Positions 12,938 to 49,335 are shown, counted from the first letter of the stretch. The stretch: DNA of 64,000 bases from an uncultured Fidelibacterota bacterium (GCA_913040915.1 CAJWHW010000003.1:20145-84144), one strand, 5' to 3'. Notes: generated from the sequence alone by a model not told the origin. Made by a program: numbers and translations.

Positions 12938-14579
12938 ACTTCTTTTAAATCTGTCAATCATTTCTCTTATAAGCGCAAGCGAATTATCTGTTCGACAATC
13001 TTACCATACCCTTTTTCTCGATAGCAGTAATGTCTGTGGTACTCCGTACATAAACAATATAATTCGCCAAGGCCCCAGCGAACTAACAGAAGCTGAAAAA
13101 TTAAAGATGGATGAAGTTGGACTGTTTATTCAGGGTAATGAAATTATTTCAAAGAAATCTACTGATTTAGATCAAATATATGATACAGAACATTTTCGGT
13201 TTTATTATACTCTCGATGAATCATCTATTCATGTTGTGGAAAATCAAGGTTATGTAATCACTATGGGTGAAGTGTTTGAAAATGTCTGGGACTTTTTTAT
13301 GGATACTCTGGGATTCGAACAACCTCTTTTAAATCCGGAAAATGATCATTCACTATACGAAATCTATATTGAATATTTATCCCCTCAATATTTTGCTCTA
13401 ACATATGGGCAAGGTTTTGGAGCATCCTGCCATGGATTTATAAAAATGCGAAATTCATATTCTGGTTCACAATTTGATGATAATACAGTATTAGAAAATA
13501 TCCAGGTTACAGCAGTACATGAATTTTTTCATGCAATTCAATTCAGTTATAATTGTTATGAAGAATTCTGGTTTATGGAAGCAACTGCAGTCTGGAGTGA
13601 GGATGAATTATTTAATGATATCAATGATTTCTATCGTTATATACCTACTTTTTTTTCAAACCCAGATGATCCCATTGGCACAGAAGGTAATTTCATGTAT
13701 GGGACCTGTATCTTTTTCCAGTATATTGATGAACATTTGGGAGGGCGAGAAACCATCCGCAAAAGCTGGGATTATTCTAGAGATTATGCCAGCCCAACAA
13801 AAAATATAAGTTACATGTCAATAGATGCTGCACTTCAGGATAACAATTCCAGTTTAGAAACGGCAATAAATCAGATGCGGATAGCGAACCTAATTCTTAG
13901 TTCCAATGAAGCAGCTGGTATTTATGCGTATGATGAAGCTGATGGCTATTTAACTGTGGTAAATCATCCACCAAAAGAAGATTACCTAATATTTGAAAAA
14001 GGGAACATTGATCAGATTGAAAATTTTTCACTCCAACGCTACAGTTCACATTATTACTCTCTTACTACTGAATCTCCCGTATCATTATCACTAATAGCAA
14101 CAAGTGGAGAGTTTTACTTTACATCGGTAGTGAAAATTTATGGGACTGACCAATGGGTAGTAAAGAGTGGATCAGAACTCAATATAGATCCAAAAATTGG
14201 GATTGATTGGATCGCATTAATTGTTTCTGCAATTGGAAAAGATGCAGATAATTGGGATTATATTTTACGCTTAGATGATGGCTATTCAGAGGATTATACA
14301 TTTTACCCACCTTACCCTAACCCTTCTTATGGACAAAGCATAAACTTTCAATTTCAAGTAATCACAGAACAAACTGTTGATTTTCGAATAATTGATTTAT
14401 TAGGTCAGGAAATTTGGCATATCTCTAACTATTATGATGAACCCGAAGTCATAACTATTGTTTGGCATGGAACAAACCATTTTGGCAAACAGGTCGCAAA
14501 TGGTATTTATTTAGGTATTATGAAAGGAGAATCAAAAACAACACTACAGAAGTTTACCTATTTAAAAAAATCAGATTGA
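12921..14579 (+). CDS. Secreted zinc metalloprotease (MXAN_6640-like) with C-terminal sorting domain
   Basis: Signal peptide; TAVHEFFHAIQ and WFMEATAVWSED; C-terminal YPNP...GIY...QKFTYLK. ATG 12921 preferred over TTG 12918. Confidence 0.82.
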   Translation: MNWINKLLLNLSIISLISASELSVRQSYHTLFLDSSNVCGTPYINNIIRQGPSELTEAEKLKMDEVGLFIQGNEIISKKSTDLDQIYDTEHFRFYYTLDESSIHVVENQGYVITMGEVFENVWDFFMDTLGFEQPLLNPENDHSLYEIYIEYLSPQYFALTYGQGFGASCHGFIKMRNSYSGSQFDDNTVLENIQVTAVHEFFHAIQFSYNCYEEFWFMEATAVWSEDELFNDINDFYRYIPTFFSNPDDPIGTEGNFMYGTCIFFQYIDEHLGGRETIRKSWDYSRDYASPTKNISYMSIDAALQDNNSSLETAINQMRIANLILSSNEAAGIYAYDEADGYLTVVNHPPKEDYLIFEKGNIDQIENFSLQRYSSHYYSLTTESPVSLSLIATSGEFYFTSVVKIYGTDQWVVKSGSELNIDPKIGIDWIALIVSAIGKDADNWDYILRLDDGYSEDYTFYPPYPNPSYGQSINFQFQVITEQTVDFRIIDLLGQEIWHISNYYDEPEVITIVWHGTNHFGKQVANGIYLGIMKGESKTTLQKFTYLKKSD

Positions 14580-15440
14580 TTCTGTAATTGTTCGAATCTC
14601 TTTTAGAATTTCTAAATAGTTTTCTTTTCCTTCTGTAAATCTAGAAATGTATTTCATAGGTTTATCTTTTCTACCTACCAGAATGACATTAGCACCAGCT
14701 TCTTTTCTTGCTACTCTATCAATATTAGATAAAAACTGTTCATATTTATCTAATTTAATCCTGTATTCCTCGAGTTGAAGTGAGAGTTCTTGCACATAAA
14801 GCGAATAAGATGATTTAGGGTCTTGAAATAATGATTCATTTAAAACCTTATTAAAATAATCAATATGCGGATCCAACAATTCTCTTTTATAACGGATGGT
14901 GTACAGGTGTTTTTTCAAAGGGATTGCTTCTTCATCCACATAAATGATCATCTTTTTAACTTTTTTAAAACCCTTTTCTAGTTTTTCTCTTTCTTTCGTA
15001 TACTGTCTTTGAGATTTCTGAATAGAAATACTAAGGGAACGTAACATTTTTTGATAAGTAACGTTAGTGTCTGATGGGATTGTTTCGAGATCTATTGTAT
15101 CTGTTTTTTTCATCTTACGTACTAATTTAACCAATTCCCTTGTAAGACTATCAACTTCTAAAATAGCATTGTTCATTCCTGTGTAACTGGGATCCAATCT
15201 CTCATATATTCGCAAATCATTATCTAAATAATACCGTAACTCCTTTTTCATTATTGGTTGCAGGTCATCCATATTTCTTGTTTCGGTTTTAGACCATTGC
15301 CGAATATTCAAGATCTGAACATCTACGGAATATACGTCATGCAATCTCCAAGGCTTAATTCGTCCCGCACAGTCCGCAAAAAAAAACAGGGTTCCCACTA
15401 TTGCGAAAACCCTGGTCAATGCAAATAAACTGAAATTCAA
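14571..15440 (-). CDS. Hypothetical helical protein, possible lipoprotein
   Basis: Hydrophobic leader ending FFADC; helical charged body; stop overlaps the convergent gene by 9 nt; TTG start overlaps grx stop. Confidence 0.6.
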   Translation of the reverse strand: MNFSLFALTRVFAIVGTLFFFADCAGRIKPWRLHDVYSVDVQILNIRQWSKTETRNMDDLQPIMKKELRYYLDNDLRIYERLDPSYTGMNNAILEVDSLTRELVKLVRKMKKTDTIDLETIPSDTNVTYQKMLRSLSISIQKSQRQYTKEREKLEKGFKKVKKMIIYVDEEAIPLKKHLYTIRYKRELLDPHIDYFNKVLNESLFQDPKSSYSLYVQELSLQLEEYRIKLDKYEQFLSNIDRVARKEAGANVILVGRKDKPMKYISRFTEGKENYLEILKEIRTITESI

Positions 15441-15676
15441 ACTTTCAAATTCCCTTCATTGTAATATTGAACCAGGTTATCAAACCCACCAATGGGTTTT
15501 TCATCAATCACAATTTGGGGAACAGTACGTCCACCGGTCAATTTAAAAAGATCATCACGACTAATCTCTTTTTCTTCAATGTCTATAGTTTGAAAAGGGA
15601 GACTCAATTCATTCAATAAACTTTTGGCAGAATTACAGGGTCCACACCAACTAGTTGAGTATATTTTAATTTTCAT
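15437..15676 (-). CDS. Glutaredoxin
   Basis: WCGPC active site, RTVPQI and IGGFD. Confidence 0.92.
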   Translation of the reverse strand: MKIKIYSTSWCGPCNSAKSLLNELSLPFQTIDIEEKEISRDDLFKLTGGRTVPQIVIDEKPIGGFDNLVQYYNEGNLKV

Positions 15677-15678
15677 AT

Positions 15679-18600
15679 TTATTTCAAAAAGAGCAATTTC
15701 TGTACTTTAGTTTTTTCTCCATACTTCATAACAGCAAAATAAGTTCCTGAAGAGACTGAATTTCCTAACCTGTTTGTACCGTTCCATATAATTTTATAAT
15801 GCCCGGAAGCCAATATCCCATTTTGTAACTCAGCTATTTCTCGACCTAGGATATCAACAATAAATATTTTTATTCTGCCTGTAATCGGAATAGTATAATC
15901 CAAACTTGTTACAGGGTTAAATGGGTTAGGATAAGGCGAATTTAATACAAATTCGTTTGAATTTATTTGATCATCTACTGCTAATGGAGCAACATAATTA
16001 TCTGGTGCTTCCGTTGTGAAACGAATGACCCTTTCATTTACTAATGGGGCTGCACCAGGTGCATAAACATTATTAAAGACATACTGTAAACCGTAACTTT
16101 TTGTCGGAGATTCTATCCCAACAGTAGAATAATTTTTTGTTACATCCACATCTTCAACCTCTAAATATTGAAAATCAATAACACCGTCCCCTGTTGCAGT
16201 AGGCATAGATGATTGATCATGGAGAATAATTTGAAACGTCTCTTCTGTTTCTTCATCATAGCCATTTAATGCTCTCGACCATTCAATAATAAATCGACCT
16301 ATTTCTTCATCGAACCAAGTATATACATTGATCCAAATATCTATAATTTCATCATTATTTGTGTCAATGGTTTCCAAATCATCGGAGAAAGGAGCTAACA
16401 ACGCTTTGGGCCCCATATACATTGGAATTGACATATTCCAAAAATAATCAATATAACAAGGAACGAATGATGCCCATCCATTTGAACTTACTGTTATTTG
16501 ATTATAATTAATCCCATGATATTTAAATGTAAATGGAAGCTCTATATTTACGTGGTCATCATCATCTAATTGGTAATGTGTACCACCACTCCCTCCAAAA
16601 CCAGGATCCAATTCCACCCAATTAAATTCAGGTGTTTGTTCATAACCCACATCAGTATCATCATAGGCCCAATAACCGTACCTGTTCGGTGCAACAGGAT
16701 TATTCGTTGTAGGTGGTGAAATATGAAGTTGAACTTTTTGGGAAAAAAAAGTATTCCCTTCTTTTTGTAATTCAATTAAAAATGTTAAGTCACTGCCATA
16801 AGCAACTTCTTCAATGGAAAAATTATAATTTGTTGTATGAGATGATGTTGTAAATGGATTAAACGAAGACAAAATATCTGACGCACTATTCAGAGTAATA
16901 GTCACACCTTCTGTCAATGCAGAAACTCCAATCCATAGATCTTCATATGAACCTGCGGAAAAATTTGAAATGGATAATTCGGGTGAGATCTCTGTATTAG
17001 GTGTAACAGAACTACTTTCAAATGAAATATTGAAGAAAGGTAGTTCAACATCAACGAAAAATTCGCAAATCAAATTTCCATTTCCATCTTCCAATAACCC
17101 AATCACACCTTGACCAGCATCTAAATTGTTTATTACAAATTCAATGCTAGGCAGATTCACACTATTTCCTGGAGCTATAACAGGAACATCCAATGTAAAT
17201 GTATTCGGTGATACCCTATCAGAAAAAATAACCTGCCCAGAAAAAGCGTTGGAAGAATTTCCAGAACTATTTTCCAATGTAATAGTCAGGTTGACCAATT
17301 CCCCAAGCACAGGTTTGTCATCGCTGTTTTGTCCGATAACATGAATATTTGATAATAACAAAGTGTTATTTGTTGGCTCTGGATTAACTACTTCATGACC
17401 CTGTATAAATCCGCCTTTATTAGCATAGACATTTAATGAACTGACTCCGGACATATCTATAGTTGAAATAAATTTTCCTGATGCATCCGAAATTCCCTTA
17501 GCAATCAATACACTTCCATTCATTACACTGATTACTGCGCCCTTGACTGCATCTCCATTGTTATTTTTTACTGTTAAATTCAATAATCCATCTTGAGATT
17601 TGAATGGACCAACTTCAAAATTAAACTGCTCTGGAGTATCAACATACACCTGGAGTGAAGGGTCACCTAAAATGTTATAAACATGTGCATAAAATTCCTG
17701 AGCTTCACCAGGTCCATTTTGAGCAGGAAATTCTTTAATTAAACCTGATTGTCCTGCCTGCATAGCAGGACCTAATTCCACAATGTCATGATTTAATATT
17801 GCATCGTACATATATGCATTAATTACATTATTATATTTTGTGCTTGTGTGAAGATCGGATGGTCCGACAAATGCCACTCCGCCTTTAGGTACCGAAGGAG
17901 TTCCACCTCTCATCACAGCTTCAGCGAAACAAGGATCCACATTATTGGCAAAATCGTTTGAGTTACATACATAACTCATGAAAACCGGAGTTAGCCAGCC
18001 ATTATTCAAATCATTTACATCATCTACATGAAATTCCGGATAGTGCCATCCATTTGCATCACCCCATCCTCGGTAATTCACTATTCCTACACCACTATTT
18101 ATTGCAGGAATTATATACGGTGCTCCCTGCTGAACAGGTGGATAAAAAACCGTATCAACTTGGCTATATCCAAAATCTAATAATTCATCCATCAGCCAAT
18201 ATGATGTCCATTTAGGTGTAATCGGAATTGGATACGTATTGGCATAATTTCCAGCAACAATGAGTCCACGACTTAACCAATTAGCATCATACGCAAGTGG
18301 GTCCCTAGCGTATTTTATTGTTTTTGCCATCATGACCGCTAAATCAGATAAAGAATCAATTGAAAATCTGCCAATAAAGACATCTGGAATATTATCATTA
18401 CCAATAATGTAGGTGTATCTCTGATCTGATACGTCATTCTCCGGACCGTAATAAAAAGATGGAAATGCAGCAAAGCCATCCACATCACCAAGCAAAAGAA
18501 CATACTCTAACATAGGATTTTCAGACAACTTATTTGAAATTGTAGTTTTTATTGCTTCTGCTGTCTCTCCTGCTTCTGACAGCGGAATGACCTGAACATC

Positions 18601-18864
18601 AAATCCTTGGGAATTTTTGAATTCAATAAAGTCACCTAAATAGTTCACAATACCATCTGGTGTAATTATCATGAATGTACCTCTCTGGGGATTGATTTGA
18701 GATGGTAAAATATTATACTCATTCATAACCATATTTGTAAAAGCCATCGGTATTGGATTTCCTATGATTTGTTCCTTTGTTTTACCACGGAATAATTTTC
18801 CTTCTCCATAAACAAAACATAATGAAAATAGAAAATAAAAGATAAATATTTTATTCAGTCTCAC
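15679..18864 (-). CDS. C25 (gingipain-family) protein with Ig-like, NIDO-like and C-terminal sorting domains
   Basis: YVLLLGD, SDQRY, PDVFIGRF, YVCNSNDF and YNILGDPSL motifs; YPNPFNP...KVQKLLFLK tail. Confidence 0.88.
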   Translation of the reverse strand: MRLNKIFIFYFLFSLCFVYGEGKLFRGKTKEQIIGNPIPMAFTNMVMNEYNILPSQINPQRGTFMIITPDGIVNYLGDFIEFKNSQGFDVQVIPLSEAGETAEAIKTTISNKLSENPMLEYVLLLGDVDGFAAFPSFYYGPENDVSDQRYTYIIGNDNIPDVFIGRFSIDSLSDLAVMMAKTIKYARDPLAYDANWLSRGLIVAGNYANTYPIPITPKWTSYWLMDELLDFGYSQVDTVFYPPVQQGAPYIIPAINSGVGIVNYRGWGDANGWHYPEFHVDDVNDLNNGWLTPVFMSYVCNSNDFANNVDPCFAEAVMRGGTPSVPKGGVAFVGPSDLHTSTKYNNVINAYMYDAILNHDIVELGPAMQAGQSGLIKEFPAQNGPGEAQEFYAHVYNILGDPSLQVYVDTPEQFNFEVGPFKSQDGLLNLTVKNNNGDAVKGAVISVMNGSVLIAKGISDASGKFISTIDMSGVSSLNVYANKGGFIQGHEVVNPEPTNNTLLLSNIHVIGQNSDDKPVLGELVNLTITLENSSGNSSNAFSGQVIFSDRVSPNTFTLDVPVIAPGNSVNLPSIEFVINNLDAGQGVIGLLEDGNGNLICEFFVDVELPFFNISFESSSVTPNTEISPELSISNFSAGSYEDLWIGVSALTEGVTITLNSASDILSSFNPFTTSSHTTNYNFSIEEVAYGSDLTFLIELQKEGNTFFSQKVQLHISPPTTNNPVAPNRYGYWAYDDTDVGYEQTPEFNWVELDPGFGGSGGTHYQLDDDDHVNIELPFTFKYHGINYNQITVSSNGWASFVPCYIDYFWNMSIPMYMGPKALLAPFSDDLETIDTNNDEIIDIWINVYTWFDEEIGRFIIEWSRALNGYDEETEETFQIILHDQSSMPTATGDGVIDFQYLEVEDVDVTKNYSTVGIESPTKSYGLQYVFNNVYAPGAAPLVNERVIRFTTEAPDNYVAPLAVDDQINSNEFVLNSPYPNPFNPVTSLDYTIPITGRIKIFIVDILGREIAELQNGILASGHYKIIWNGTNRLGNSVSSGTYFAVMKYGEKTKVQKLLFLK

Positions 18865-18899
18865 AGCTATTCCTTTTGATTGATATTCGATAGGTTATC

Positions 18900-21233
18900 T
18901 TAATTTTTTAATATTAAACATTTTTTCACAACTTGACTATTCTGTGAATCGATACGGATGAAAACCATTCCAGAACTATTGGGAACCCCGCTCATGCTGC
19001 TCAAATTAAAATTAATTAAATTCCTACCTGGTGATAATCTTTGAAATTTTTGGAAATATATTTCCTGTCCAAGTAGATTATATGCCTTTACTGTTGCTTC
19101 CCCACCAGGGAAATTAGTTAAATCTATTTGAAATGAACCATTTGATGGGTTTGGATAAAGTCCACTTATTCTCATCGGATTTTTAGGTGCTTTATTAATA
19201 TTCGTTTCTGTGATACCTAAGTAATCATCCATAGTAGAAAACAATGTTAAAGATTGTATTTCCCAACCACGATAATTCACAGTTTGATCAGGTAAAAAAG
19301 ATAACCGTACCTTAATATTAGAAAATTCATTCAGAGACGTAGCGGATATTAAATCTGTACGAAATTCTTCCCATTGATTACCTGTCCAACTTTTATTTAC
19401 TAAAACATTTGATCCTTCATCTAAAATAGATAAGGAAACATGATCATAGTCCCATTCTGTCTCAAAGCGATGATCAATGGTAACAACAAGACGGTTTGTC
19501 CCTGTTACATCAATTAAATCGGACTCCATCCACTGTAGAGTTTGTGAAGAATCGCCATTCTCATAATAAAATTCTTCTTGAGATTTCAGAATTAGGTTCT
19601 CTGTACACCATGGCCCTTCAGAATTAGTCCAAATCCAAGAATCGCTCAATGATTGCGGATTACCATACCAATAAGGTACTGTCATTTCCATATTGCTGGT
19701 TATTGTAATATTATTATGCCAAGGCATCATTTCTCCATCCATCTTAAAGGATAGTATGTAATTCCCTTCATAAAGAGAAAAATTATTTGGACCGGTTGAA
19801 ATTTGTATCTCATCTTTTCCAAATTCATTTTCAATAAATCCAGTTATCGTATTATTGTCAGTTGTTTCATGATAAAGGTTCAGTATTAATGATCGTAAGG
19901 GGGCAGGTTCAAGATAAATATCTTCATTGGTTATACCACTATTATTGGTTACGACTGTTACTTCTTTTGGGATATATCCCTTTGCACGAATAGAAAGTGT
20001 ATATGTACCAGCATCTAAAATTCTTCTGTATCTTCCAAATTCATTTGTCAATCGTGGTTTTAGAACAGAGCCTGTATGCTCTAAAATTTCTACAATTGCA
20101 TTTTCTATAGGCTGGTTACTTGTTGCATCCGAAATAATTCCGGTGACCTGTGCCGCATCAGTATAATAACCGAGGGCACGGTCCATTAAATAAACCATTG
20201 CCGGCTTGTTACGTTCTATTGTATCTTCAATTAAAGTGCTGCCTGGCTGAAGATTTGCTGTTCCGCATTCTACCAGATACTGTATACAACCTGTTTCACG
20301 ATAAAACCAATCATGAAGTTTTCCATTCCTTGAGCCGCTGTATACAGATAAATAAGTACCTGTTCCATCTTCAGTCTCTATGAGCCCCGCAAAGTGATCT
20401 GCTATAGATTTCATTACGTTTAAATCTGGAGAATCTTTCGTTTCTTCCCAGCGCCAGCTGGTAAATACTTTTTCTGATAGATTACCTGAGCGTGAGCTGT
20501 GCCAAACGATTGAGAAGACAAAATTGTTTTCTAAGGCTAAGTCCCTAATAGCGATTGCTTCTCCTTCAGAAAAAGGTTCTTCACCCTTGTAATAATCATA
20601 ATGTGATGCGTAATCAGAATTGTCTGGTTCTAAAAATGTATCTCCAAACACCCAATTAAAGTTAAAATTACGGTTCAGATCCACCCCGTCTATATCGTTG
20701 CCAATCGAAGGATCATAATCGAATAATTCATTCGGATACGGACCTTCAGGACTTAAATCTCTTTTTGTTTTTCTATAACTGACATCCAAGCCTTCATGCA
20801 CGACATTTAACCCATCTGGGTTAGCAGTAGGAATAATCCAAATCTCTAAATATTGCTTAAGGATATTCATATGCGTGAATATACTATTATCAGGAAACAA
20901 TAAATCATCTATCAGATCTAATACTATTTCGTTGCCCAATATTTCTTCGGCATGAACCTGCCCAACAAATAAAACACTGGGCTCATCTTCTCTAACATCA
21001 ACATTATCTGAAATTTTTACCGCCAAAATAGGTATTTGGTCATGAGTAGAGTAACCAATTGTATCTACTCGGTACCATCCATCCAATTCTTCTAATTGAT
21101 CCAGTGAATCTAAATATGCATAAATTTCATCCACGGTATGATAGCGACTATCTAATACCTGTCCATAATTAGGATTGCCTAAATGAAATATAATGAGAAT
21201 AGAACTTATATTAAAAATTGAGGATAATTTCAT
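18900..21233 (-). CDS. Secreted M14 zinc carboxypeptidase with transthyretin-like and C-terminal sorting domains
   Basis: GQVHAEE, PTANPDG, GVDLNRNF, PFSE and WHS motifs; YPNPSNG...KKCLILKN tail. Confidence 0.9.
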   Translation of the reverse strand: MKLSSIFNISSILIIFHLGNPNYGQVLDSRYHTVDEIYAYLDSLDQLEELDGWYRVDTIGYSTHDQIPILAVKISDNVDVREDEPSVLFVGQVHAEEILGNEIVLDLIDDLLFPDNSIFTHMNILKQYLEIWIIPTANPDGLNVVHEGLDVSYRKTKRDLSPEGPYPNELFDYDPSIGNDIDGVDLNRNFNFNWVFGDTFLEPDNSDYASHYDYYKGEEPFSEGEAIAIRDLALENNFVFSIVWHSSRSGNLSEKVFTSWRWEETKDSPDLNVMKSIADHFAGLIETEDGTGTYLSVYSGSRNGKLHDWFYRETGCIQYLVECGTANLQPGSTLIEDTIERNKPAMVYLMDRALGYYTDAAQVTGIISDATSNQPIENAIVEILEHTGSVLKPRLTNEFGRYRRILDAGTYTLSIRAKGYIPKEVTVVTNNSGITNEDIYLEPAPLRSLILNLYHETTDNNTITGFIENEFGKDEIQISTGPNNFSLYEGNYILSFKMDGEMMPWHNNITITSNMEMTVPYWYGNPQSLSDSWIWTNSEGPWCTENLILKSQEEFYYENGDSSQTLQWMESDLIDVTGTNRLVVTIDHRFETEWDYDHVSLSILDEGSNVLVNKSWTGNQWEEFRTDLISATSLNEFSNIKVRLSFLPDQTVNYRGWEIQSLTLFSTMDDYLGITETNINKAPKNPMRISGLYPNPSNGSFQIDLTNFPGGEATVKAYNLLGQEIYFQKFQRLSPGRNLINFNLSSMSGVPNSSGMVFIRIDSQNSQVVKKCLILKN

Positions 21234-24299: not shown

Positions 24300-24341
24300 T
24301 CCTTCGTCAAATTTATGTTGTTTTATAAACAAATAATTTTA

Positions 24342-40195: not shown

Positions 40196-40205
40196 GCTGC
40201 ACTCC

Positions 40206-41639: not shown

Positions 41640-41660
41640 TGTGGCATATCCCTTTAAGAT

Positions 41661-42260
41661 TTAATTCTTTTTATTATTTTTTTTCAAATAGCTGTAATCA
41701 GTTCCGTGCACCCAAACCAGATTTTGATTTGTCATGGGATTGACCTTACTCTTTTGATTGAAGCTTGTGTTCAGATTACCGGGAGCTGGATAAGCTTTAA
41801 GACCAGCACTTGTTCGGATAAGTACTTGGGTCGCATCAATCAACTCGACCTTACCAATATTTTCTATGTTATCTCCCACCGATACAGTATAAGCTTTACC
41901 TCTGTAATCTATTTGAGCTTGAAAGTGATTATTCCTCTGATACACCAGGGCAACACGTACTGCATTTCGGTTTCTTCTGGAACGCCTACCTGTACCGTCA
42001 GCCATCGTTAATACATTTGTCAGCATCATTGGAGTATTGTTCAATGAAAATCGAAAATCGCTTCTCTCAGCCAAACGGTTTTCTAGATAAGCGATAATAT
42101 CTTCTAATTCTTTGTCTGTACCAAATTGCAGATTATTTGACCTCTCTTTTAGTCGATTATATTTTTTATTCATTGGAAATAGCTTAAAACTGGTAGCAAT
42201 CAGGGAAACGATTGTTATGCCAACCAACAGATTCCATATAGTCACTGATCTTTCACTCAT
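41661..42260 (-). CDS. PilP/GspC-position protein with N-terminal membrane anchor
   Basis: Between pilO and secretin; C-terminal YTVSVGDNI..GKVELID beta motif resembles the PilP fold; no lipobox. Confidence 0.6.
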   Translation of the reverse strand: MSERSVTIWNLLVGITIVSLIATSFKLFPMNKKYNRLKERSNNLQFGTDKELEDIIAYLENRLAERSDFRFSLNNTPMMLTNVLTMADGTGRRSRRNRNAVRVALVYQRNNHFQAQIDYRGKAYTVSVGDNIENIGKVELIDATQVLIRTSAGLKAYPAPGNLNTSFNQKSKVNPMTNQNLVWVHGTDYSYLKKNNKKN

Positions 42261-42832
42261 TAGGATACCTTCGTTTTTGATTTGACAAGCGTTATCGTTG
42301 AGAGACTGACAACAAATTCTTGATCTATTAAGTCTTCTTCCTGAATATTTGCTTTTATCCGTTGAATTCCATTTTTCACTTCAAATTCATCAATTGTGAT
42401 TAACCTCGGTGATCTCTCTATCTCAGAAAGAAATTCCCCAAATTGCTCAAATGTGCACTCAAGTGTTATGATGTACGGTGCTTCGAAGTATGTGGTTTTA
42501 TTTTTTCGTGGTTTCGGCTTTATACCCAGCAGCTCAATATCTAAAGCTTCTAACATATTGGTTAGATTATTTAAAAATGGGAGATTCGCATCGTCAGCCA
42601 GAGAGTCTGCTTGTGACAAGGCCAGATTCTCCTGAAATAATGTAAAGACACGGTCTAACTGACTAGCTAAAATTTGTGCACTGATTAAATTCTCATTCAG
42701 CTCAGCCTGCTCATCTTCCAACAGCCTAATATCAAATGGTTTTTCCCCGATCATTATGGAAGAACTGACCCAGAATGTGATGGTAAGTAAAACCAGAGCG
42801 CCAAATAATAATATATTTCTTTTTTCAGCCAT
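42260..42832 (-). CDS. pilO: Type IV pilus alignment protein PilO
   Basis: TM, coiled coil, then PY.I.L...FEQFGEFLSEIERSPRLI; synteny. Confidence 0.85.
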   Translation of the reverse strand: MAEKRNILLFGALVLLTITFWVSSSIMIGEKPFDIRLLEDEQAELNENLISAQILASQLDRVFTLFQENLALSQADSLADDANLPFLNNLTNMLEALDIELLGIKPKPRKNKTTYFEAPYIITLECTFEQFGEFLSEIERSPRLITIDEFEVKNGIQRIKANIQEEDLIDQEFVVSLSTITLVKSKTKVS

Positions 42833-42840
42833 CTATCTCT

Positions 42841-43434
42841 CTATGAATAAGATTTACGTCGATTCTTCTTAATTGTGGCTTCAATCTCAAAGCGTACAAT
42901 ATCCTGTCCTCGTACATTTATTTTGCTGTGACCAACATATTTGATTTTTCCAAAATTTTGGGAGAAATTTTTATTCCTGCGCAGCGTTTGAACATATTCA
43001 TCGATAATCTCAAAATCTTTGCGATCTTCAAAGGTAAGTGCAATACCACGAACTACCAGTTTTTGCTTTTTATATCGCAGACCCGTTATTGCCATATCAT
43101 CCGGTGTCATTGTTCCAAGAATCTCTAAATTTTGAGCCCAGAGATATCTGTTCTGCTCTAAATCAGCAAAGGCAAGGATATCATCCTTGGACAAATTTTT
43201 TCCTTCAGTCTGAAGCTTGGCAATTTCATCCTTTAATCTTTGAATTTCTTCTTTCTTCTGATCAATTATTTTGTTGTATCCTAATCCTATCATCCATGTT
43301 CGAATATTTACACCCAACAGAATAATCAGTAAGACTGCGAATGTACCCCATCTGAACTGCTCCCTTATTCGCTGAAGTCTTGTTTCTGCACTCTCAGCTT
43401 TATTCAGGTTGATAAGAATGAACTGCCTATCCAT
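42841..43434 (-). CDS. pilN: Type IV pilus alignment protein PilN
   Basis: N-terminal INL motif, TM, coiled coil, PDDMAITGL; synteny. Confidence 0.82.
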   Translation of the reverse strand: MDRQFILINLNKAESAETRLQRIREQFRWGTFAVLLIILLGVNIRTWMIGLGYNKIIDQKKEEIQRLKDEIAKLQTEGKNLSKDDILAFADLEQNRYLWAQNLEILGTMTPDDMAITGLRYKKQKLVVRGIALTFEDRKDFEIIDEYVQTLRRNKNFSQNFGKIKYVGHSKINVRGQDIVRFEIEATIKKNRRKSYS

Positions 43435-44485
43435 TAGACATTCCTCCCCGAATACTCAAGCCCATCGCAGTGGCATATTGACTCTTATTTGTTAATGAAA
43501 TGGAATCGCTCCCTTCAATATTTTCAAATGGATCGAATGAAGTGCATTCAATATTCAGTTTACTTGTAATAAAATCTGAAAGACCCTTGGTCTCACCACC
43601 ACCGCCCAATAAAAATAGTTTTAAGAAAAAACTCTGACCAGTTTGTTTCGCATAAAACCTCAGTGATCGTCTTAAATCTTCAACTAAATTATCGTAAACA
43701 GTACGCTCAGCAATTCCAACACCTGTAGATGGTTCATCGGTTTCAACGCTGCCAACAGCGGCTAAACCACCCTTGTAGAGTAAATCTTGTGCTTCTATAT
43801 AACTAATTTCTTTTAATTGAGATAATTCTTTAACAAAATGGTGTCCACCTATAGGTAAATCTCTAGTAAAAAACTGTTTTCCTTTCCCATAGACGACTAA
43901 ACTAGATGAAACTGCGCCAATGTCTAAGAGTACTACTAGACCGTCTTCTGGCAGATCTTTTACTAGCGTAAATGCATTACTGATGGCAATCGGATTCACA
44001 TCAACTACACCTGGTTTCAAACCACAATCTTTTATGAGCTCCATATGCCCATTTAAAACGCCTTTGGTACAGGCAACTAGACCAACGTCAATTTTATCCA
44101 CTTCCAGTTCATTTGATCCGATAATTTGATAGTCTATGATAGCATCCGTACCATCCATGGGAATATGCTTTCTAGCTTCAAAGGTCATAGCAGACTCTAA
44201 CTCATCTGAAGGCATTTCCATGGTTGTGATTTGTTTAACACTTGCATTTGAACCACTGATTCCGGTTGTCAGGACCTTAACCTTTTTGGGGTTCAGCCCT
44301 TGTTGACGAAACAATTCTTTCACAGCCATGACCCAGTGTGTTTTATCGATTTTCTCCGGATCATAGGCTGAGTTTGGTTCAGGAACTAATCTTGTTCCCG
44401 CATCCAAGACTTTAAATCCATCTTTTACCTTTTCAACTGTGACCAGTTTAATAAACTGTCTGCCAATATCTAGACCGAGGTACAT
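43427..44485 (-). CDS. pilM: Type IV pilus assembly protein PilM (actin-like)
   Basis: LGLDIG, EARKHIP, LDIGA, RSLRFY, LGGGG and AMGLSIR motifs. Confidence 0.92.
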   Translation of the reverse strand: MYLGLDIGRQFIKLVTVEKVKDGFKVLDAGTRLVPEPNSAYDPEKIDKTHWVMAVKELFRQQGLNPKKVKVLTTGISGSNASVKQITTMEMPSDELESAMTFEARKHIPMDGTDAIIDYQIIGSNELEVDKIDVGLVACTKGVLNGHMELIKDCGLKPGVVDVNPIAISNAFTLVKDLPEDGLVVLLDIGAVSSSLVVYGKGKQFFTRDLPIGGHHFVKELSQLKEISYIEAQDLLYKGGLAAVGSVETDEPSTGVGIAERTVYDNLVEDLRRSLRFYAKQTGQSFFLKLFLLGGGGETKGLSDFITSKLNIECTSFDPFENIEGSDSISLTNKSQYATAMGLSIRGGMSNG

Positions 44486-44506
44486 TATTTTCCTATTCTT
44501 TATACT

Positions 44507-46759
44507 TTAGTTTTTAGCTTCACCGTAAGAAGCCATTTTTAAAATTACTTGATTAGTGGAACTCTGTAGATCTGGAAAATATGGTGGCGGACGCATACGT
44601 AAATTCCAATCATAATGATAATCCTTATCGTATCCAACACCAGGGGTGACATTATAAGGGCCTTGCCAATTCCGTAGCATATAACCACGCTGAAATTGCA
44701 CAATTGATCCATATAGTTTTACATCACCTCTTTTATCATTTACCCCAGTATATATTCCATTACTTGTTTCAGGTCTGTAATAGTTCCTGTGTCCACCCCT
44801 ACCATCTGCAATAATGCCATACGGAAGATTATCATCTATATCATGAAAATCGGTTAAGGTATTTTGCCAATAATGTGAAAGAAATCCACCATTCATGGCA
44901 AGAAGAGAAGCATTAATTCTTATATGGCATTCATCATCATCACTATTGTCAGTGCAACCACCCCTAGCTCCATTGGGCCTTGTATTTGCAATAATAACGC
45001 TTCCACCTGCAATTAAGCCTAAGACATGATCTGAGCCACCATCTTCCGGGTGAATTACTTCCCCAGCTGCATCTGAATCGAGATAGACAATATCATCTAT
45101 AAGCCAAATATTACCCCAAACACGATCAATTATATCCATATTATCATGCCGTCGGTATTCAGTAAAGTCATCCGTTACAATTGTATATAAACCATCCACA
45201 GTACCTCGAACAAGGACTTGTCCACCTCGTACATAAATTACCTGAGGTGAACTCCCTTTAGAAAAAAATGTTCGATTCATATGTACGTATTCGCTGTTGT
45301 ATATGATATCAGGACAATTAAAAATATCACAATTATTTCCAGAAATACCGCCGTAGTTCCAATATTCAAAGTCAAAGTGGTGTAGTCTTCCTGCTTCACA
45401 AAATTCAGATGAGTTATCGACATGGTCGTGGTAATAATAAAATGAATTCCACTCCACATCTTCAGCAAGGCCTGTTGATGCACTGGTATTAATAACTTTC
45501 ACTCGTTCATTCTGACTAAATCCCTTTCCATCAGCATTGAAATAAGTTAAACTTCCTGGAGTAAAAATAATCTTAATATTGCCATCGCCTGGAAATACAG
45601 CATTAGCTATAAAAGTTGCTACCTTGGTACCGGCTTCATTCTCAATACGTATTACATCACCATTTTCAACTAAATCTTGAAATTCAGATTGTATATTGTT
45701 CCCATCAGCATCAATCACACTTACTATCAACATATTAGTTTGAGGATCATAATTACCGGCTGCATCATTAAATACATTGGAAAGTGCAAACCGACTAAAT
45801 CCAGCTGGTGGTGGATCTAAATTTACGTAGTTGGTACTGTCCCAGAAAAAATCATACTCTGCTGGCGGGCTACCAACTGGTGGGATATTATACCACCACT
45901 GTGTTGCCCAGTAACCACCTTGGACAAAATTAATCTCCGTCATAATTAAAGTGTCCTTCTGATTCCCACGAAATAATTTATCATCCGCTTCTAATACTCG
46001 AGTCGCGTTTTGCCTTGCAGTCTCTGCTGAATTATCCGGTGGAAAGATTATCTGTGAAACGGTATCAAGTATATTAATGTCATCCACTTCAAATACACTC
46101 TCATCACAACCTCCATAATTAACTCCACTACCATTTTCATCAATTGCCTCAAAGGTTATATTTACTTCACCTGAAAATTTTGGACCACCCCCGAAACAAT
46201 TATTACTAAGATTTATCACACCATTTGTATGTACCTTACCCTCTAACTCATCCGAACTTCCAAAATTGACATTTCCGGTATTTCCAGGACCTATAGGCTT
46301 TTCCTCATGGGTAAAATACATGAATTCTTCAAAACCCGCGGGTACCATAGTAGTATAGACTCGACGCTTGATCTGCACATCTGTTCCGCTCGGAGTGGTA
46401 TATTCAGCTATTCCTGTTGAGTAAGCTATGTATTCTTTCCTGGTTGATCCTATTTGTAACCTTGTAGAGCACGCTATATCTTCATAAGTGCCCAATCGCT
46501 CTCCGTTTTCATCTGCTCCATATTCTACACCATTACCAAGTAGCAATGTGTCAGATGTAATCTGGGGCAGAACAACAATACCGACTTCATTAAGTCCAGC
46601 TTCAGCAGCGTAGAGGGCTTTCCACTCGGAATATCTATATTTTTCCATCACATCCATACTGAATGAGTTCTTCAAATACGCTGCTGTAAATGCCATTGAT
46701 AGCATAGTAAAAAGGATCGCAAGCGGCGCCACACTTCCTGTAGATATCTTTCTAAACAT
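44507..46759 (-). CDS. Large PilX/GspK-like minor pilin (750 aa)
   Basis: G|SVAPL leader without Glu5, ALYAAEAGL motif, GKVHTNG, C-terminal GYDKDYHYD...PPPYFP. Confidence 0.75.
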   Translation of the reverse strand: MFRKISTGSVAPLAILFTMLSMAFTAAYLKNSFSMDVMEKYRYSEWKALYAAEAGLNEVGIVVLPQITSDTLLLGNGVEYGADENGERLGTYEDIACSTRLQIGSTRKEYIAYSTGIAEYTTPSGTDVQIKRRVYTTMVPAGFEEFMYFTHEEKPIGPGNTGNVNFGSSDELEGKVHTNGVINLSNNCFGGGPKFSGEVNITFEAIDENGSGVNYGGCDESVFEVDDINILDTVSQIIFPPDNSAETARQNATRVLEADDKLFRGNQKDTLIMTEINFVQGGYWATQWWYNIPPVGSPPAEYDFFWDSTNYVNLDPPPAGFSRFALSNVFNDAAGNYDPQTNMLIVSVIDADGNNIQSEFQDLVENGDVIRIENEAGTKVATFIANAVFPGDGNIKIIFTPGSLTYFNADGKGFSQNERVKVINTSASTGLAEDVEWNSFYYYHDHVDNSSEFCEAGRLHHFDFEYWNYGGISGNNCDIFNCPDIIYNSEYVHMNRTFFSKGSSPQVIYVRGGQVLVRGTVDGLYTIVTDDFTEYRRHDNMDIIDRVWGNIWLIDDIVYLDSDAAGEVIHPEDGGSDHVLGLIAGGSVIIANTRPNGARGGCTDNSDDDECHIRINASLLAMNGGFLSHYWQNTLTDFHDIDDNLPYGIIADGRGGHRNYYRPETSNGIYTGVNDKRGDVKLYGSIVQFQRGYMLRNWQGPYNVTPGVGYDKDYHYDWNLRMRPPPYFPDLQSSTNQVILKMASYGEAKN

Positions 46760-47390
46760 CTGTCTCTTCTTCAGTCATGGCATTAGTAATCTTCTTCTGG
46801 ATATAGCTAGTACCTAAGAATACTGTTCTATGAAATCTATGCTCTTCTGTGATTTCTCTTACACCTTCATCAATTACATCTGACTCGAGTCCTAAGGTGA
46901 GTGTGACATGCAAATAAGAACTCTTAAAAAGAGAGAGACTCGGACGCGTATCAACATCTGTCTGAACAATAAAATCAACAATGTATACTTCTCTCTGCCC
47001 ATTTCCTCGAAATGCACCTTCAGAAGGGAGCTTCAAAAGACCTTTAAGCGGCGGCTCACTGTTAAACTCAATTCCATTTCTACGATCGCAGGATATCTGT
47101 AAATGGGGAGAAATATCTGTGAATTCTTCATATAGCTTCATTCGAGAAAAACCATTCTGGCCATCTATTTCAACCTTTTTTGCCAGGTTTAATTCACGAG
47201 AAATCTCTCTTAGTATATTGTTCCCGTATTGCCTTAAGTCCTGTCGGACTGTATCTGTTTGGTAGTGTAGAATAACTGCTTGCGCTGCTGAAGTCATACC
47301 AAATGCAATAATTCCAACTACTATTGTTGTAGCCGCAATTTCCATTAGGGTAATACCTGAAGATGTTTTTTTCAAAAATGACTTAATCAT
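46752..47390 (-). CDS. Minor pilin (PilW-like)
   Basis: Class III signal KKTSSG|ITLME; ISRELNLA helix. Confidence 0.8.
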   Translation of the reverse strand: MIKSFLKKTSSGITLMEIAATTIVVGIIAFGMTSAAQAVILHYQTDTVRQDLRQYGNNILREISRELNLAKKVEIDGQNGFSRMKLYEEFTDISPHLQISCDRRNGIEFNSEPPLKGLLKLPSEGAFRGNGQREVYIVDFIVQTDVDTRPSLSLFKSSYLHVTLTLGLESDVIDEGVREITEEHRFHRTVFLGTSYIQKKITNAMTEEETDV

Positions 47391-47863
47391 GTTTCAAAAA
47401 CCGTCATGATAGTTGATAATCTTCTCTCTTTTGAAACTCGGCCAGCGTAGCGACTGGGGGGTGCTGCAAAGTAGTCACTCCATTTAATCCAACATTCTAT
47501 CTCAAACCTTGACATATCTGTAATACCGTAATCATTGAATTTGTTTAACCGTCTTATATTGTAATAAATTTTTGCTTTAATAGTGTAGCGGTCTCCAGCA
47601 GAGCCGACAAGATATATATCATTTCCATCCGGATCTCCTGCACGTTCCGTGGGTGATAGATTTCCATCTGCGATACGACCTTTCCAATACTCCATATAGT
47701 TCAAAAGCTCTTCTGTTGCTCGTTCTTTTATTTCCAATGCATGTAGCTCACTTCGAGCATGCACCACACCCATCATTAAACCAACACAGGAAATTAAAAT
47801 AATAACTGTGGCAGTCATCACTTCTATAAAACCAACGCCAGATGTTGTTTTTTTGAAATTCAT
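47387..47863 (-). CDS. Minor pilin (PilV-like)
   Basis: Class III signal KKTTSG|VGFIE followed by hydrophobic helix. Confidence 0.8.
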   Translation of the reverse strand: MNFKKTTSGVGFIEVMTATVIILISCVGLMMGVVHARSELHALEIKERATEELLNYMEYWKGRIADGNLSPTERAGDPDGNDIYLVGSAGDRYTIKAKIYYNIRRLNKFNDYGITDMSRFEIECWIKWSDYFAAPPSRYAGRVSKERRLSTIMTVFET

Positions 47864-48916
47864 TTAGAGTACGTTTTGAGCAAACAGTTTTGGATTCTCT
47901 GCAATAGACTGGGCCATTTTTCTCTCAATAAGACCTTGAGTAACTAAACGCTGTAGATCCTGGTCTAGTGATTGCATACCATCTGTTCCACCGGATTGAA
48001 TAATGGACGGTATCTGATAGATTCGATCTTCACGGATCAAATTTCGAATGGCAGTGTTTGCGATCATAACTTCACAGGCAGGAACCCTCCCTTTTGCGTC
48101 TTTTGTTTTCAATAGCTTTTGAGCAATGACTGCTTCTAAACTCTCTGAGAGCATAGAACGTATCTGTCCCTTCTGTCCCGTTGGAAAAATATCAATGATA
48201 CGGTCTATCGTTTTGACAGCACTTGATGTATGCAGTGTTGACAATACTAAGTGACCCGTTTCTGCGGCAGTTAACGCAAGAGAAATAGTCTCTAAATCGC
48301 GCATCTCACCGACCAAAATTACATCTGGGTCTTCACGAAGGGCAGAGCGCATTGCATTTGCGAAACTATGTGTATTGGCCCCTAGCTCACGTTGATTAAT
48401 CAGGCTTTCTTTTGTATGGTGGTAGTACTCTACAGGATCTTCAATAGTAATAATATGACATTTACGTTGAGTATTGATGTGGTCTACCATCGCCGCTAGA
48501 GTGGTACTCTTACCTGATCCGGTTGGCCCTGTTAGAAGAACCAATCCGCGGTCAATTAGAGCTAAATTTTTTAATACGGGTGGGATGCCTAAATCATCAA
48601 AATCTTTAACAACTTCAGGTATCGTTCTGAAAACTGCTGCCAAACCTTTGATCTGATTAAAAAAATTGACACGGAACCTTCCCTTACCTTCTAAACTAGC
48701 TGAAAAATCAATCTCTTTTCTTTCTTCAAAAATTTGAATTTGATCTTCATCCAGAACCTGAGGAATAATCGCTTCCATTTCTTCTTGTTTAAGTGGCTCC
48801 ATGTTTAATGGTTTCATAACACCATTAATCCGAACCATTGGTATAGAACCGACACTTAAGTGAAGATCAGAAGCGCCGCTATCTACAGAATAAGAAAGTA
48901 ATTGATTTAGGTCCAT
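47864..48916 (-). CDS. pilT: Type IV pilus retraction ATPase
   Basis: ASDLHL, GPTGSGKSTTLAAM, LREDPDVILVGEMRD and the PilT-specific AIRNLIRE motif. Confidence 0.97.
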   Translation of the reverse strand: MDLNQLLSYSVDSGASDLHLSVGSIPMVRINGVMKPLNMEPLKQEEMEAIIPQVLDEDQIQIFEERKEIDFSASLEGKGRFRVNFFNQIKGLAAVFRTIPEVVKDFDDLGIPPVLKNLALIDRGLVLLTGPTGSGKSTTLAAMVDHINTQRKCHIITIEDPVEYYHHTKESLINQRELGANTHSFANAMRSALREDPDVILVGEMRDLETISLALTAAETGHLVLSTLHTSSAVKTIDRIIDIFPTGQKGQIRSMLSESLEAVIAQKLLKTKDAKGRVPACEVMIANTAIRNLIREDRIYQIPSIIQSGGTDGMQSLDQDLQRLVTQGLIERKMAQSIAENPKLFAQNVL

Positions 48917-48921
48917 AAAAT

Positions 48922-49335
48922 CTATTCTTCTTCTGGTGAACCGTAACCGCTAAATCTACCATTATCCGCATCGTAGACTACAACCTTACCTGCACCACCA
49001 GACATTTCTTCAGTACTTGTAGCAGTAATCCTACCTCCTTGATCACTGAGTGCGATATCAAATGACCATTTTAGTTTGGTGGAGCGTTCTACGTCAAGTT
49101 TCCCGGCTCTTTCTAGCTGATCAATTTCTGATGGCCATTCGCCCTTTTCTTGATAATACATTTTGGAAGCATTACTAACATTAGACATCACTGTTCTTGC
49201 TTCGGATGCGTAACCACTACTTACTAAATCAAAATAAGTTGGTAGCGCGATTACCGCCAGAATAGCAACAATTACAACAACAACCATTATCTCAATCATC
49301 GTGAAGCCTGATTGTATTTTCTTTTTAAGGTTCAT
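48922..49335 (-). CDS. pilA: Type IVa pilin, probable major pilin
   Basis: MNLKKKIQSG|FTMIEIMVVVVIVAILAVIALP; start set at ATG 49335 (AGGAG upstream); first gene of the pil run. Confidence 0.85.
   Translation of the reverse strand: MNLKKKIQSGFTMIEIMVVVVIVAILAVIALPTYFDLVSSGYASEARTVMSNVSNASKMYYQEKGEWPSEIDQLERAGKLDVERSTKLKWSFDIALSDQGGRITATSTEEMSGGAGKVVVYDADNGRFSGYGSPEEE

Follow-up and report, generated by a model that had tools for sequence, protein, structure and literature searches.

Type IVa pili of diderm bacteria such as Pseudomonas aeruginosa and Myxococcus xanthus are composed of the pilin PilA, the ATPases PilB and PilT, PilC, PilD, the PilMNOPQ proteins, minor pilins and PilY1. Synthesis of poly-gamma-glutamate (PGA) in Bacillus depends on PgsBCA(E) or CapBCADE. 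Type IV pili may be coupled with a matrix polymer, as in Myxococcus with exopolysaccharide, or in Vibrio cholerae, where the mannose-sensitive haemagglutinin (MSHA) pilus and the Vibrio polysaccharide (VPS) are under the control of cyclic diguanylate (c-di-GMP). The subject of the present work is a stretch of 64,000 nucleotides from an uncultured Fidelibacterota bacterium (GCA_913040915.1, CAJWHW010000003.1:20145-84144; this whole stretch is called the window in the following, and coordinates refer to it unless another contig or locus is named), in which the genes of a type IVa pilus, of PGA synthesis and of secreted proteins of the C25 and M14 peptidase families follow one another in a single array.

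The window resembles the described type IVa pilus systems in having a class III pilin, both ATPases, the platform, the alignment subcomplex, the secretin, the A24 domain of a prepilin peptidase and an MshEN domain on PilB. It differs from them in that the genes stand in one array headed by pilin and pilT, in that a lipoprotein with bacterial Ig-like (Big_1) domains has a fixed place between pilQ and pilB, in that PilD is cut to its A24 domain, and in that the array passes free of gaps into the PGA operon. As in the Bacillus Pgs/Cap systems and the TIGR04332-type cassette of NCBIfam, PgsB and PgsC score above the equivalog cut-offs and TIGR04332 comes next; unlike in Bacillus the operon is without PgsA/CapA, PgsE and CapD, belongs to a diderm and adds a beta-sandwich protein, an outer-membrane barrel, a lipoprotein and cargo of the type IX secretion system (T9SS). 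With the Myxococcus and Vibrio couplings it would share a retractile pilus and a secreted anionic polymer apparently used together, as well as a c-di-GMP module on the PilB-type ATPase. The polymer would however be a polyamide and not a polysaccharide, and the link is a gene array and not a regulatory network.

An earlier reading of the window from its sequence alone, called the sequence-only reading in the following, had supposed that this combination had not been described, which holds within the literature searchable in full text. A full-text search, which covered articles outside the subscription journals, found no literature joining Marinimicrobia or SAR406 with poly-gamma-glutamate, and no description of PGA export in two-membrane cells was found in the searchable literature. 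CapBC-type PGA synthesis has been reported for metagenome-assembled genomes of other candidate phyla, with no pilus link in the passages concerned (PMC9324843). New here are the pilus-PGA fusion and the pattern in which the two modules co-occur.

The gene array and its distribution among relatives

Genes of the window were called from a listing of open reading frames (ORFs) and from protein family scans (Pfam, and NCBIfam/TIGRFAM with curated cut-offs). From 49335 down to 14571 an unbroken series of 26 genes, all on the minus strand, was found, in agreement with the sequence-only reading, the twenty-sixth member of the count being a glutaredoxin gene. In transcription order the pilus half consists of the pilin, pilT, two minor pilins, a 750-amino-acid PilX/PilY1-like protein, pilM, pilN, pilO, pilP and pilQ, the Big_1 lipoprotein, pilB, pilC and pilD. 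The PGA half follows with a C25-dockerin gene, pgsB, pgsC, TIGR04332, three proteins of no family, a 1019-amino-acid protein with a C-terminal sorting domain (CTD) of the T9SS, an M14 protein with CTD and a second C25 protein with CTD; the glutaredoxin gene and then an ORF at 14571-15440 form the 3' end. The three modules, type IVa pilus, PGA synthesis and secreted C25/M14 proteins, proved to be real in the family scans, and the tight junctions had been given exactly: 8 nt separate pilD and the C25-dockerin gene and 25 nt the latter and pgsB, while the TIGR04332 gene and the next one overlap by 23 nt.

For the comparison with relatives about 40 kb around pgsB were inspected in 20 genomes of the order, and a pattern search with the barrel protein of the PGA operon in 185,579 species genomes yielded 101 relatives, from which 80 loci named Candidatus Neomarinimicrobiota, Marinimicrobia, Fidelibacterota, FCB group or uncultured bacterium were kept. 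Labels of genomes (G), loci (L) and families (f1 to f16) are those of this analysis, the window's genome being in f1. Fourteen of the 20 genomes, within the reach of their contigs, have the tight gene order of the window, among them members of f14, f11 and f7 at 40-60% amino-acid identity, and colinearity extends over five families (f1, f7, f9, f11 and f14). This arrangement is thus by no means confined to very close relatives, the outcome which the sequence-only reading had named as speaking against its proposal. In 68 of 108 pgsB-positive genomes pilC and pgsB lie 4.4-5.7 kb apart on one strand and contig (39 in f1, 3 in f7, 18 in f9, 5 in f11 and 3 in f14). Fourteen more genomes of these five families have the two genes on different contigs or pilC unmatched, and in two of f11 the sole PgsB is 34% identical and a pilC ortholog is absent. 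Pilus genes stand directly ahead of the C25 gene in 47 of the 80 named loci; 18 are too short, 9 are cut inside C25, and 6 show at least 800 nt of upstream sequence with no tandem pilus genes.

Spacing within the block was surveyed in 18 tight genomes. The gap between pilD and C25 is 8-19 nt (16/16) and that between C25 and pgsB 17-64 nt, the TIGR04332 gene overlaps the next gene by 23 nt (16/16) and the M14 gene the C25-CTD gene by 22 nt (13/15). Only one interval is long throughout: between the C25-CTD stop and the ORF past the glutaredoxin gene there are 204-321 nt (10/10), in which the glutaredoxin gene and a hairpin lie. The module junctions leave no room for intergenic promoters.

The sequence-only reading had seen no terminator in the array, which proved to be wrong at the 3' end. 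A fold scan of the minus strand of the whole window for hairpins followed by a T run (free energy, dG, at most -8; at least 5 T) gave eight sites, the strongest of which (dG -17.3; the runner-up, within pilC, reached -12.0) is an intrinsic-terminator-like hairpin at 15378..15414 (minus strand) with a 12-bp stem, a 4-nt loop and nine T, a few bases 3' of the glutaredoxin stop. A hairpin of the same shape and place is found in eight of nine f1 genomes, the window's genome included, and a weaker one in the ninth (G002); with the same simple scan none was found at that 3' position in five genomes of other families. As the window's strongest terminator-like hairpin directly follows the glutaredoxin gene, the unit most likely comprises 25 genes from pilin to glutaredoxin. 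The ORF at 14571..15440 (minus strand; 289 amino acids, no family), the first codons of which overlap the hairpin, is probably separate from the unit because its start falls within this structure. The count of 26 genes stands, and a unit of 26 probably does not. At the other end a further terminator-like hairpin at 49438..49461 (minus strand; 9-bp stem and seven T), also present in the f1 relatives G004 and G011, ends an upstream M6/CTD gene about 100 nt ahead of the pilin start, so that such hairpins lie on both sides of the block. The same-strand run extends upstream to 57095 with three further CTD proteins, which this hairpin parts from the pilin.

In the six of the 20 genomes which belong to f2, f4, f5, f6, f10 and f16, no pilus genes stand directly ahead of the PGA module. 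In unfused PGA operons an intergenic stretch of 270-530 nt precedes the first gene, which encodes a C25 protein of 1752-1836 amino acids (C25, an M6-like middle part and a T9SS tail). A complete pilus operon, Big_1 included, is found on another contig in f2, f6 and f10. The end of the unlinked pilus operon at pilD was observed directly in three of five contigs (G033, G029 and G040), with a convergent gene next in G033; in G025, for which the queries matched no pilD, pilC is the last gene of the operon as far as they show, and the f16 contig stops about 1 kb past pilD. Two further forms of adjacency were found. In G082 (f16) pilD is followed by a 559-amino-acid gene on the opposite strand and then by the giant C25 gene, and in locus L150 pilin and a dockerin-type C25 gene stand head-to-head across 485 nt. 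A strict link between the dockerin and the fusion was considered and dropped, since L150, with its divergent genes, and L153, with no pilus genes in the visible 2.7 kb upstream, have a dockerin-type C25 as well.

A tree was calculated from concatenated PgsB, PgsC and TIGR04332 (78 labelled loci, of which 72 have all three intact, giving 57 distinct rows; quick IQ-TREE run, LG+G4, unrooted and so neutral as to which state is ancestral). All 46 tight rows are on one side of a branch with a support of 100 in the Shimodaira-Hasegawa-like approximate likelihood ratio test (SH-aLRT), and no break is seen in the clade. The remaining 11 rows are separate (8), spaced (2) or divergent (1), which makes at least two changes of arrangement. 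On this tree the tight fusion arose once, and afterwards no loss is seen. The flanks have changed within the tight clade and the block itself has not. The M6/CTD gene upstream of the pilin is found in four of five f1 relatives with any visible sequence there and was not matched in four non-f1 tight genomes reaching the pilin (0.8-2.7 kb visible). The downstream pair of u518 and alaS persists in f1 and G030; the fetched DNA of G037, G034, G046 and G130, four of the five non-f1 tight genomes which run past C25-CTD, did not show it.

Co-occurrence of the modules was counted in 221 genomes of the order, with pgsB at E <= 1e-40 (108 genomes) and the pilC ortholog at E <= 1e-90 (103 genomes). Both are present in 98 genomes, pgsB only in 10, the pilC ortholog only in 5 (72-83% complete) and neither in 108. 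Among 100 high-quality genomes (at least 90% complete, at most 5% contaminated), which are kin of each other, the corresponding numbers are 44, 5, 0 and 51. All nine genomes of the unlinked families f2, f6 and f10 have both modules. The claim that the pilus and PGA modules belong together thus gains from their co-occurrence also where they are unlinked.

Gene content of the two modules

The major pilin is encoded at 48922..49335 (minus strand, as are all genes of the block; PF07963, 31.8 bits versus a cut-off of 21.2; TIGR02532, 32.3 versus 16.3), its start being taken at Met22 of the ORF 48922-49398. The leader MNLKKKIQSG followed by FTMIEIM, with Gly-1, Phe+1 and Glu+5, points to a class III signal peptide and N-methylation motif. 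The retraction ATPase PilT (47864..48916; TIGR01420, 480.8 bits versus 319) is followed by two minor pilins of 158 and 212 amino acids (46752..47863) with the prepilin-type N-termini GFIEVM and GITLMEI and no family match, which are kept in all pilus modules compared. The next protein (44507..46759; 750 amino acids, hydrophobic N-terminus, no family) is colinear in relatives and is assigned as a PilX/PilY1-like tip or priming protein by position only. The genes pilM, pilN, pilO, a pilP-like gene and the secretin gene pilQ occupy 40206..44485 (PF11104/TIGR01175, PF05137, PF04350, TIGR03021 and PF00263/TIGR02515). Of their products PilM scores above the curated cut-off (TIGR01175, 170.7 versus 133), PilQ with 194.6 remains under the cut-off of 284 for TIGR02515, and PilP yields a weak TIGR03021 match only.

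The Big_1 lipoprotein of about 978 amino acids (37262..40198; PF02369, lipobox FMNLAC) contains Ig domains of the invasin/intimin type and a C-terminal stretch rich in Asp and Gly, and it stands between pilQ and pilB in every pilus operon examined in the order, fused or unfused. It probably starts at Met51, and a seeming 143-nt overlap with pilQ therefore vanishes. The extension ATPase PilB (35524..37242; PF00437, PF05157) carries an N-terminal MshEN domain predicted to bind c-di-GMP (NF053729, 54.5 bits versus 38); its TIGR02538 score of 621 bits is just below the equivalog cut-off of 675.65, and T2SSE is matched at E 7e-135. The platform PilC is encoded at 34277..35524 (PF00482; NF052607) and the short prepilin peptidase PilD at 33630..34274 (PF01478, 38.3 bits versus 26.5). 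With 214 amino acids and the A24 domain only, PilD of f1 is without the Cys-rich N-terminal part of the 250-265-amino-acid PilD of unfused relatives. In two tight families (G037, G030, L137 and L140) the place of pilD ahead of the C25 gene yielded no match, and in G037 and G030 pilC abuts the C25 gene. Where the block is without pilD, the only A24 peptidase of the genome belongs to a second, GspF-type cluster; in the window's genome both are present, the second, longer A24 gene lying on contig C12. By these assignments the type IVa pilus system, 14 genes from pilin to pilD, is complete.

In the PGA operon, PgsB, the ligase subunit of PGA synthase (28833..30014; TIGR04012, 414.1 bits versus 222.7), and PgsC (28397..28840; TIGR04011, 116.7 bits versus 96.45; PF14102) are followed by the poly-gamma-glutamate system protein TIGR04332 (27253..28419; 297.1 bits versus a cut-off of 100), which by eye has hydrophobic segments at both ends. 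The latter gene is present as a single copy in the genome and stands after PgsB and PgsC in 25 of 25 gene-called genomes. The name pgsW, under which it appeared in the sequence-only reading, could not be confirmed; among the matches listed there was no polyglutamate paper, and the gene is called TIGR04332 here. No PF09587 match is present in the block, hence PgsA/CapA is not encoded together with PgsB and PgsC, and neither PgsE nor CapD was found in the operon. From these assignments we infer PGA as the product of PgsB, PgsC and TIGR04332.

For the three proteins of no family, Pfam searches at E up to 1, which covered all no-family proteins, gave nothing usable except the glutaredoxin. A secreted protein of 292 amino acids (26397..27275; signal peptide) was modelled by AlphaFold2 with a predicted local distance difference test score (pLDDT) of 86 as two tandem beta-sandwich domains resembling carbohydrate-binding modules; Foldseek matches were to tandem proteins of this kind with low TM-scores, which are low because two domains are compared at once. 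The protein encoded at 25366..26397 (343 amino acids) has a signal peptide followed by 14 strands and is predicted, from an alignment of 23 sequences, to be an outer-membrane beta-barrel (AlphaFold2 pLDDT 87, predicted TM-score 0.81). Its best matches in the Protein Data Bank (PDB) are the 14-strand channels CymA and OmpG and those of the Occ/OprD type including OccD2, which makes it a candidate PGA export channel. The third is a lipoprotein of 345 amino acids (24342..25379; lipobox LFGC), probably a beta-propeller, with faint hints of LVIVD and WD40. The polymer would thus take a route from PgsBC and TIGR04332 via the periplasmic beta-sandwich protein to the barrel.

Some side observations on the PGA genes may be added. 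The only PGA_cap domain of the genome is found in a 1584-amino-acid protein with PKD, PGA_cap and type I dockerin domains on contig C14 (L158:1277-6031, plus strand; 199 bits). The PGA_cap part of this protein is found in 22 of 41 relatives, solely in pgsB-bearing families, and is missing from several pgsB-positive genomes (G013-G016; f2, f5, f7 and f11); the protein may serve the PGA system as an accessory docked at the surface. In the f1 genome G114 the block is tight, and the pgsB match is split (C1:98961-100104), the second part having four stops (2 TGA, 1 TAG and 1 TAA), possibly a decaying copy. The tight genomes G130 and G060 have an extra 0.7-1.4 kb separating the barrel and lipoprotein genes.

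Four large exported proteins, all with signal peptides as seen by eye, frame the PGA genes. At 30040..33621 a protein of 1193 amino acids is encoded which consists of a C25 propeptide, a C25 domain and a C-terminal type I dockerin with two canonical calcium loops (PF00404, 29 bits versus 22.9). The 1019-amino-acid repeat protein with T9SS sorting domain is encoded at 21273..24332, with TolB-like leads only, all below 0.9, in the ESM Atlas. The M14 zinc carboxypeptidase with CarboxypepD_reg domain and CTD follows at 18900..21233, and the second C25 protein with CTD at 15679..18864. The T9SS tails of the three tailed proteins score 31.5, 39.0 and 23.5 bits in TIGR04183 versus a cut-off of 23, the first value being that of the repeat protein. 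A T9SS is present in the genome, as PorU (563 bits versus a cut-off of 420) and SprA are encoded on other contigs along with more than 30 tailed ORFs.

Both C25 proteins have the domain of the gingipains RgpB and Kgp (MEROPS C25; PDB 1cvr, 4ief and 4rbm) at E values of 1e-45 to 2e-59, matching PF01364 at 1.2e-44 and 1.9e-58 and RgpB at 2e-20 and 9e-31; one has the propeptide, one has the T9SS CTD, and the Cys column is kept. They differ from the gingipains in the residue at the His column and, for one copy, in having a dockerin instead of a CTD. They also differ from PorU, for which they score below the model cut-off (41 bits versus 420). The catalytic dyad of RgpB, His211 and Cys244, is put at about these positions by the alignments with its GHG His and its AC Cys. 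In the alignment with RgpB (1cvr and 4ief) the motif NYTGHG of RgpB reads NYRGY in the dockerin C25 and NYRGWG in the tailed C25, with Tyr429 and Trp267 in place of the catalytic His and Cys457 and Cys300 kept. Among the orthologs of the dockerin C25 this column holds Tyr in 21, Phe in 2 and Trp in 2 (n=25), and among those of the CTD C25, after dropping ten further rows which were the other paralogue, Trp in all 15; the Cys is conserved without exception. In PorU of the same genome, taken as a control, the residue is His (SYIGHGS). Because the catalytic His is replaced in every ortholog examined, neither C25 protein is a gingipain-type protease by the family-defining His-Cys dyad.

The M14 enzyme, by its residues, is intact and looks active. 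All 15 orthologs have unchanged equivalents of carboxypeptidase T His69, Glu72, Asn146/Arg147, His204 and Glu277, which cover the zinc ligands (HxxE and a further His), the catalytic Glu and the NRN site for the substrate carboxylate. The positions of Thr257 and Asp260 are taken by Arg and Lys. In carboxypeptidase T, Asp260 is the pocket residue selecting basic side chains; as a lead, a pocket of basic character would accommodate a C-terminal glutamate well. Across the order the PGA genes are accompanied by the C25, M14 and repeat proteins, also where no pilus ortholog was found. Owing to this order-wide tie to the PGA operon the M14 enzyme is probably better read as a PGA-trimming enzyme.

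Possible partners for the dockerin are found elsewhere in the genome. A 1147-amino-acid protein on contig C15 (L156:1202-4645, plus strand) has two cohesin stretches (52 bits versus 24.1) and a T9SS CTD, and a 1046-amino-acid protein on contig C10 (L157:733-3873, minus strand) combines a CarboxypepD_reg domain, a dockerin, a weak cohesin match and a T9SS tail; at least seven other ORFs bear dockerins. This suggests a cellulosome-like display scaffold anchored by the T9SS, and docking of the dockerin C25 on the C15 cohesins is plausible from the domains present. A partner encoded in the pilus module was also considered and dropped, no cohesin match being present in the window and the cohesins being on contigs C15 and C10.

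The glutaredoxin gene (15437..15676; 79 amino acids, PF00462, E 3e-17), the last before the terminator-like hairpin, occupies a seeming 238-nt gap 3' of the C25-CTD gene and starts 2 nt past the C25 stop. It is found -4 to +64 nt from this stop in 14 of 15 rows with a true C25-CTD ortholog, G060 giving no result as its contig ends inside C25-CTD and rows begun from the dockerin paralogue being left out. A redox protein of the cytoplasmic type here closes a surface operon. The surroundings of the block are rich in surface proteins. Upstream, at 49469-57095 (minus strand), three T9SS-tailed proteins are encoded, of 1324 amino acids with M6 and RTX repeat, of 249 amino acids, and of 893 amino acids with Chlamydia-PMP repeats; on the other side a converging 553-amino-acid protein with a weak T9SS tail is encoded at 12918-14579 (plus strand).

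Explanations of the fused block

The favoured explanation, considered as a whole somewhat better than evenly placed to be right, is a super-operon which would have arisen by head-to-tail fusion of two older, separately conserved Marinimicrobia operons, one for a type IVa pilus and one for PGA of a diderm, and the products of which would be made together. Transcription would start upstream of the pilin, at about 49336-49440, and end at the hairpin 15378-15414. One promoter region would drive the retractile pilus, the extension motor of which carries the c-di-GMP-binding domain, together with the PGA coat, its export parts and the surface enzymes. PgsB, PgsC and TIGR04332 would make the polymer and move it across the inner membrane, and the periplasmic double beta-sandwich protein, the 14-strand barrel and the lipoprotein would carry it through the envelope. 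At the surface it would be served by the four large exported proteins, i.e. the dockerin C25, the repeat protein, the M14 enzyme trimming PGA and the second C25, the last three of them T9SS-tailed. Pilus and coat would form one surface or attachment programme. Confidence is high for the structural and evolutionary statements, that is for gene content, order, spacing, folds, residue states and distribution. Co-transcription of the pilus and PGA halves appears probable from the sequence, and for a real functional tie of the pilus with the polymer the genes make the chances about even. Evidence that the link is more than inheritance comes from the other forms of adjacency, from the changing flanks around a constant block and from the co-occurrence of the modules.

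Several findings weigh against this explanation. Close packing is the norm in this streamlined genome for unrelated genes too: housekeeping genes at 448-12048 (alaS, RidA and others) have gaps of at most 12 nt or overlap, and about 41 of 48 window genes (own count, glutaredoxin included) are on the minus strand. Since unrelated genes are packed equally tight, spacing by itself says little and does not exceed chance here; the comparative evidence does. The fusion appears to be one evolutionary event, its wide spread therefore being due to descent, not to selection acting repeatedly. That PGA can do without the pilus follows from f4 and f5, six genomes in which the PGA operon is present and a search for the pilus ortholog found none. 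Promoters may lie within coding sequence; a scan for sigma-70-type promoters found fewer sites than in shuffled sequences (79 versus 93.9 and 55 versus 69.4) with a consensus which may not be that of the host phylum, and no motif common to the pilin-upstream and C25-upstream regions of unfused genomes was found by eye and with a sigma-54 pattern. A look-up of sequencing runs listed no RNA run containing the locus. Three metatranscriptome runs from the same sample as a DNA run with the locus, and one DNA run, compared with 15300-35299 gave two clean RNA contigs of about 150 nt, 31187-31341 and 32404-32554, both inside the dockerin C25 gene; the remaining RNA matches are short, partial and loose-ended, and no junction is spanned, so that they speak neither for nor against co-transcription. 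PGA as the product is a reading of the genes, the export route and the M14 substrate are predictions, and the M14 alignment behind the basic pocket has a weak overall score of about 50 bits.

The main rival, which appears unlikely but has to be reckoned with, is a neutral fusion through streamlining, in which neighbouring surface operons lost the DNA between them; read-through would be possible with no functional dependence, and the block would persist for want of harmless breakpoints. The single origin of the tight form, the equally tight packing of unrelated housekeeping genes, the small genomes of the order (about 1.1-3.8 Mb) and the PGA operons of f4 and f5, where no pilus ortholog was found, all suit such a history, and G082, with its opposite-strand gene still between the modules, would be a plausible intermediate. 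It is however less easily reconciled with the divergent head-to-head adjacency of L150, with the presence of both modules in all nine genomes of three unlinked families, with a pilus ortholog that in 100 high-quality genomes never comes without pgsB, and with flanks that were rearranged in the tight clade while the block was not. The co-occurrence in the high-quality genomes, with PGA modules lacking the pilus ortholog but never the reverse, also fits a further reading, a single interdependent machine in which the pilus works only in or through the PGA coat, for example by binding PGA and retracting on it as in the case of Myxococcus exopolysaccharide. The coat would then be assembled and remodelled at the surface by non-proteolytic C25 pseudo-gingipains anchored by cohesin and dockerin or by the T9SS, by the M14 enzyme as a gamma-glutamyl carboxypeptidase and in many genomes by the dockerin-tailed PGA_cap protein. 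This coupling is improbable.

Some type IV pilus systems secrete proteins, and the pilus-like machine might accordingly be a type II-like secretion device for the PGA module, passing the dockerin C25 or the polymer through the PilQ secretin. The C25 of the tight clade has a dockerin in place of the T9SS tail of most unfused lineages and would therefore need another exit. But in L153 a dockerin-type C25 occurs and the visible upstream 2.7 kb are free of pilus genes, the second GspF/A24 cluster of the genome could itself serve as a type II system, PilT and a full set of minor pilins favour a true retractile pilus, and the PGA operon has its own barrel, which together make a secretion device very improbable. 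Hardly better placed is the original proposal of the sequence-only reading, a particle-digesting apparatus with pili for attachment, a PGA coat around the cell and tethered peptidases of the gingipain and M14 types for the breakdown of particle protein. Surface display would follow from the C25 fold with propeptide, the dockerin and CTD tails and the signal peptides, the M14 enzyme is catalytically intact by its residues, and a T9SS-anchored protein with two cohesins is available for docking. In the one paper found to mention Marinimicrobia together with gingipain, C25 is also counted among the common extracellular peptidases of metagenome-assembled genomes, in a paragraph which gives the peptidase count of the Marinimicrobia genomes as well (PMC8359207). 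At the catalytic position, however, none of the C25 orthologs examined has His: all 25 of the dockerin protein have Tyr, Phe or Trp and all 15 of the CTD protein have Trp, while PorU of the same genome does keep His. The order-wide association of the C25, M14 and repeat proteins with the PGA genes ties them to the polymer and not to prey protein. Digestion of protein by tethered peptidases is thus not supported, and the fused, co-made pilus and PGA block is preferred.

Meaning for the Marinimicrobia

Few uncultured bacteria of the dark ocean are as abundant as the Marinimicrobia, or SAR406, and we know of no account of their cell surface. A unit of a retractile pilus and an anionic polyamide coat would provide testable candidates for the hold of SAR406 on particles and gels. 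It would also suggest bacteria as one possible origin of polyglutamate in the organic matter of the sea. Candidates for the export of PGA from diderm cells are now available in TIGR04332, the periplasmic beta-sandwich protein and the 14-strand barrel. As both C25 copies are without the catalytic His across the order, peptidase inventories which count Marinimicrobia C25 matches may overstate proteolytic capacity. For the study of operon evolution the block would offer a clean natural case of two operons which fused once and were then frozen while their flanks went on changing.

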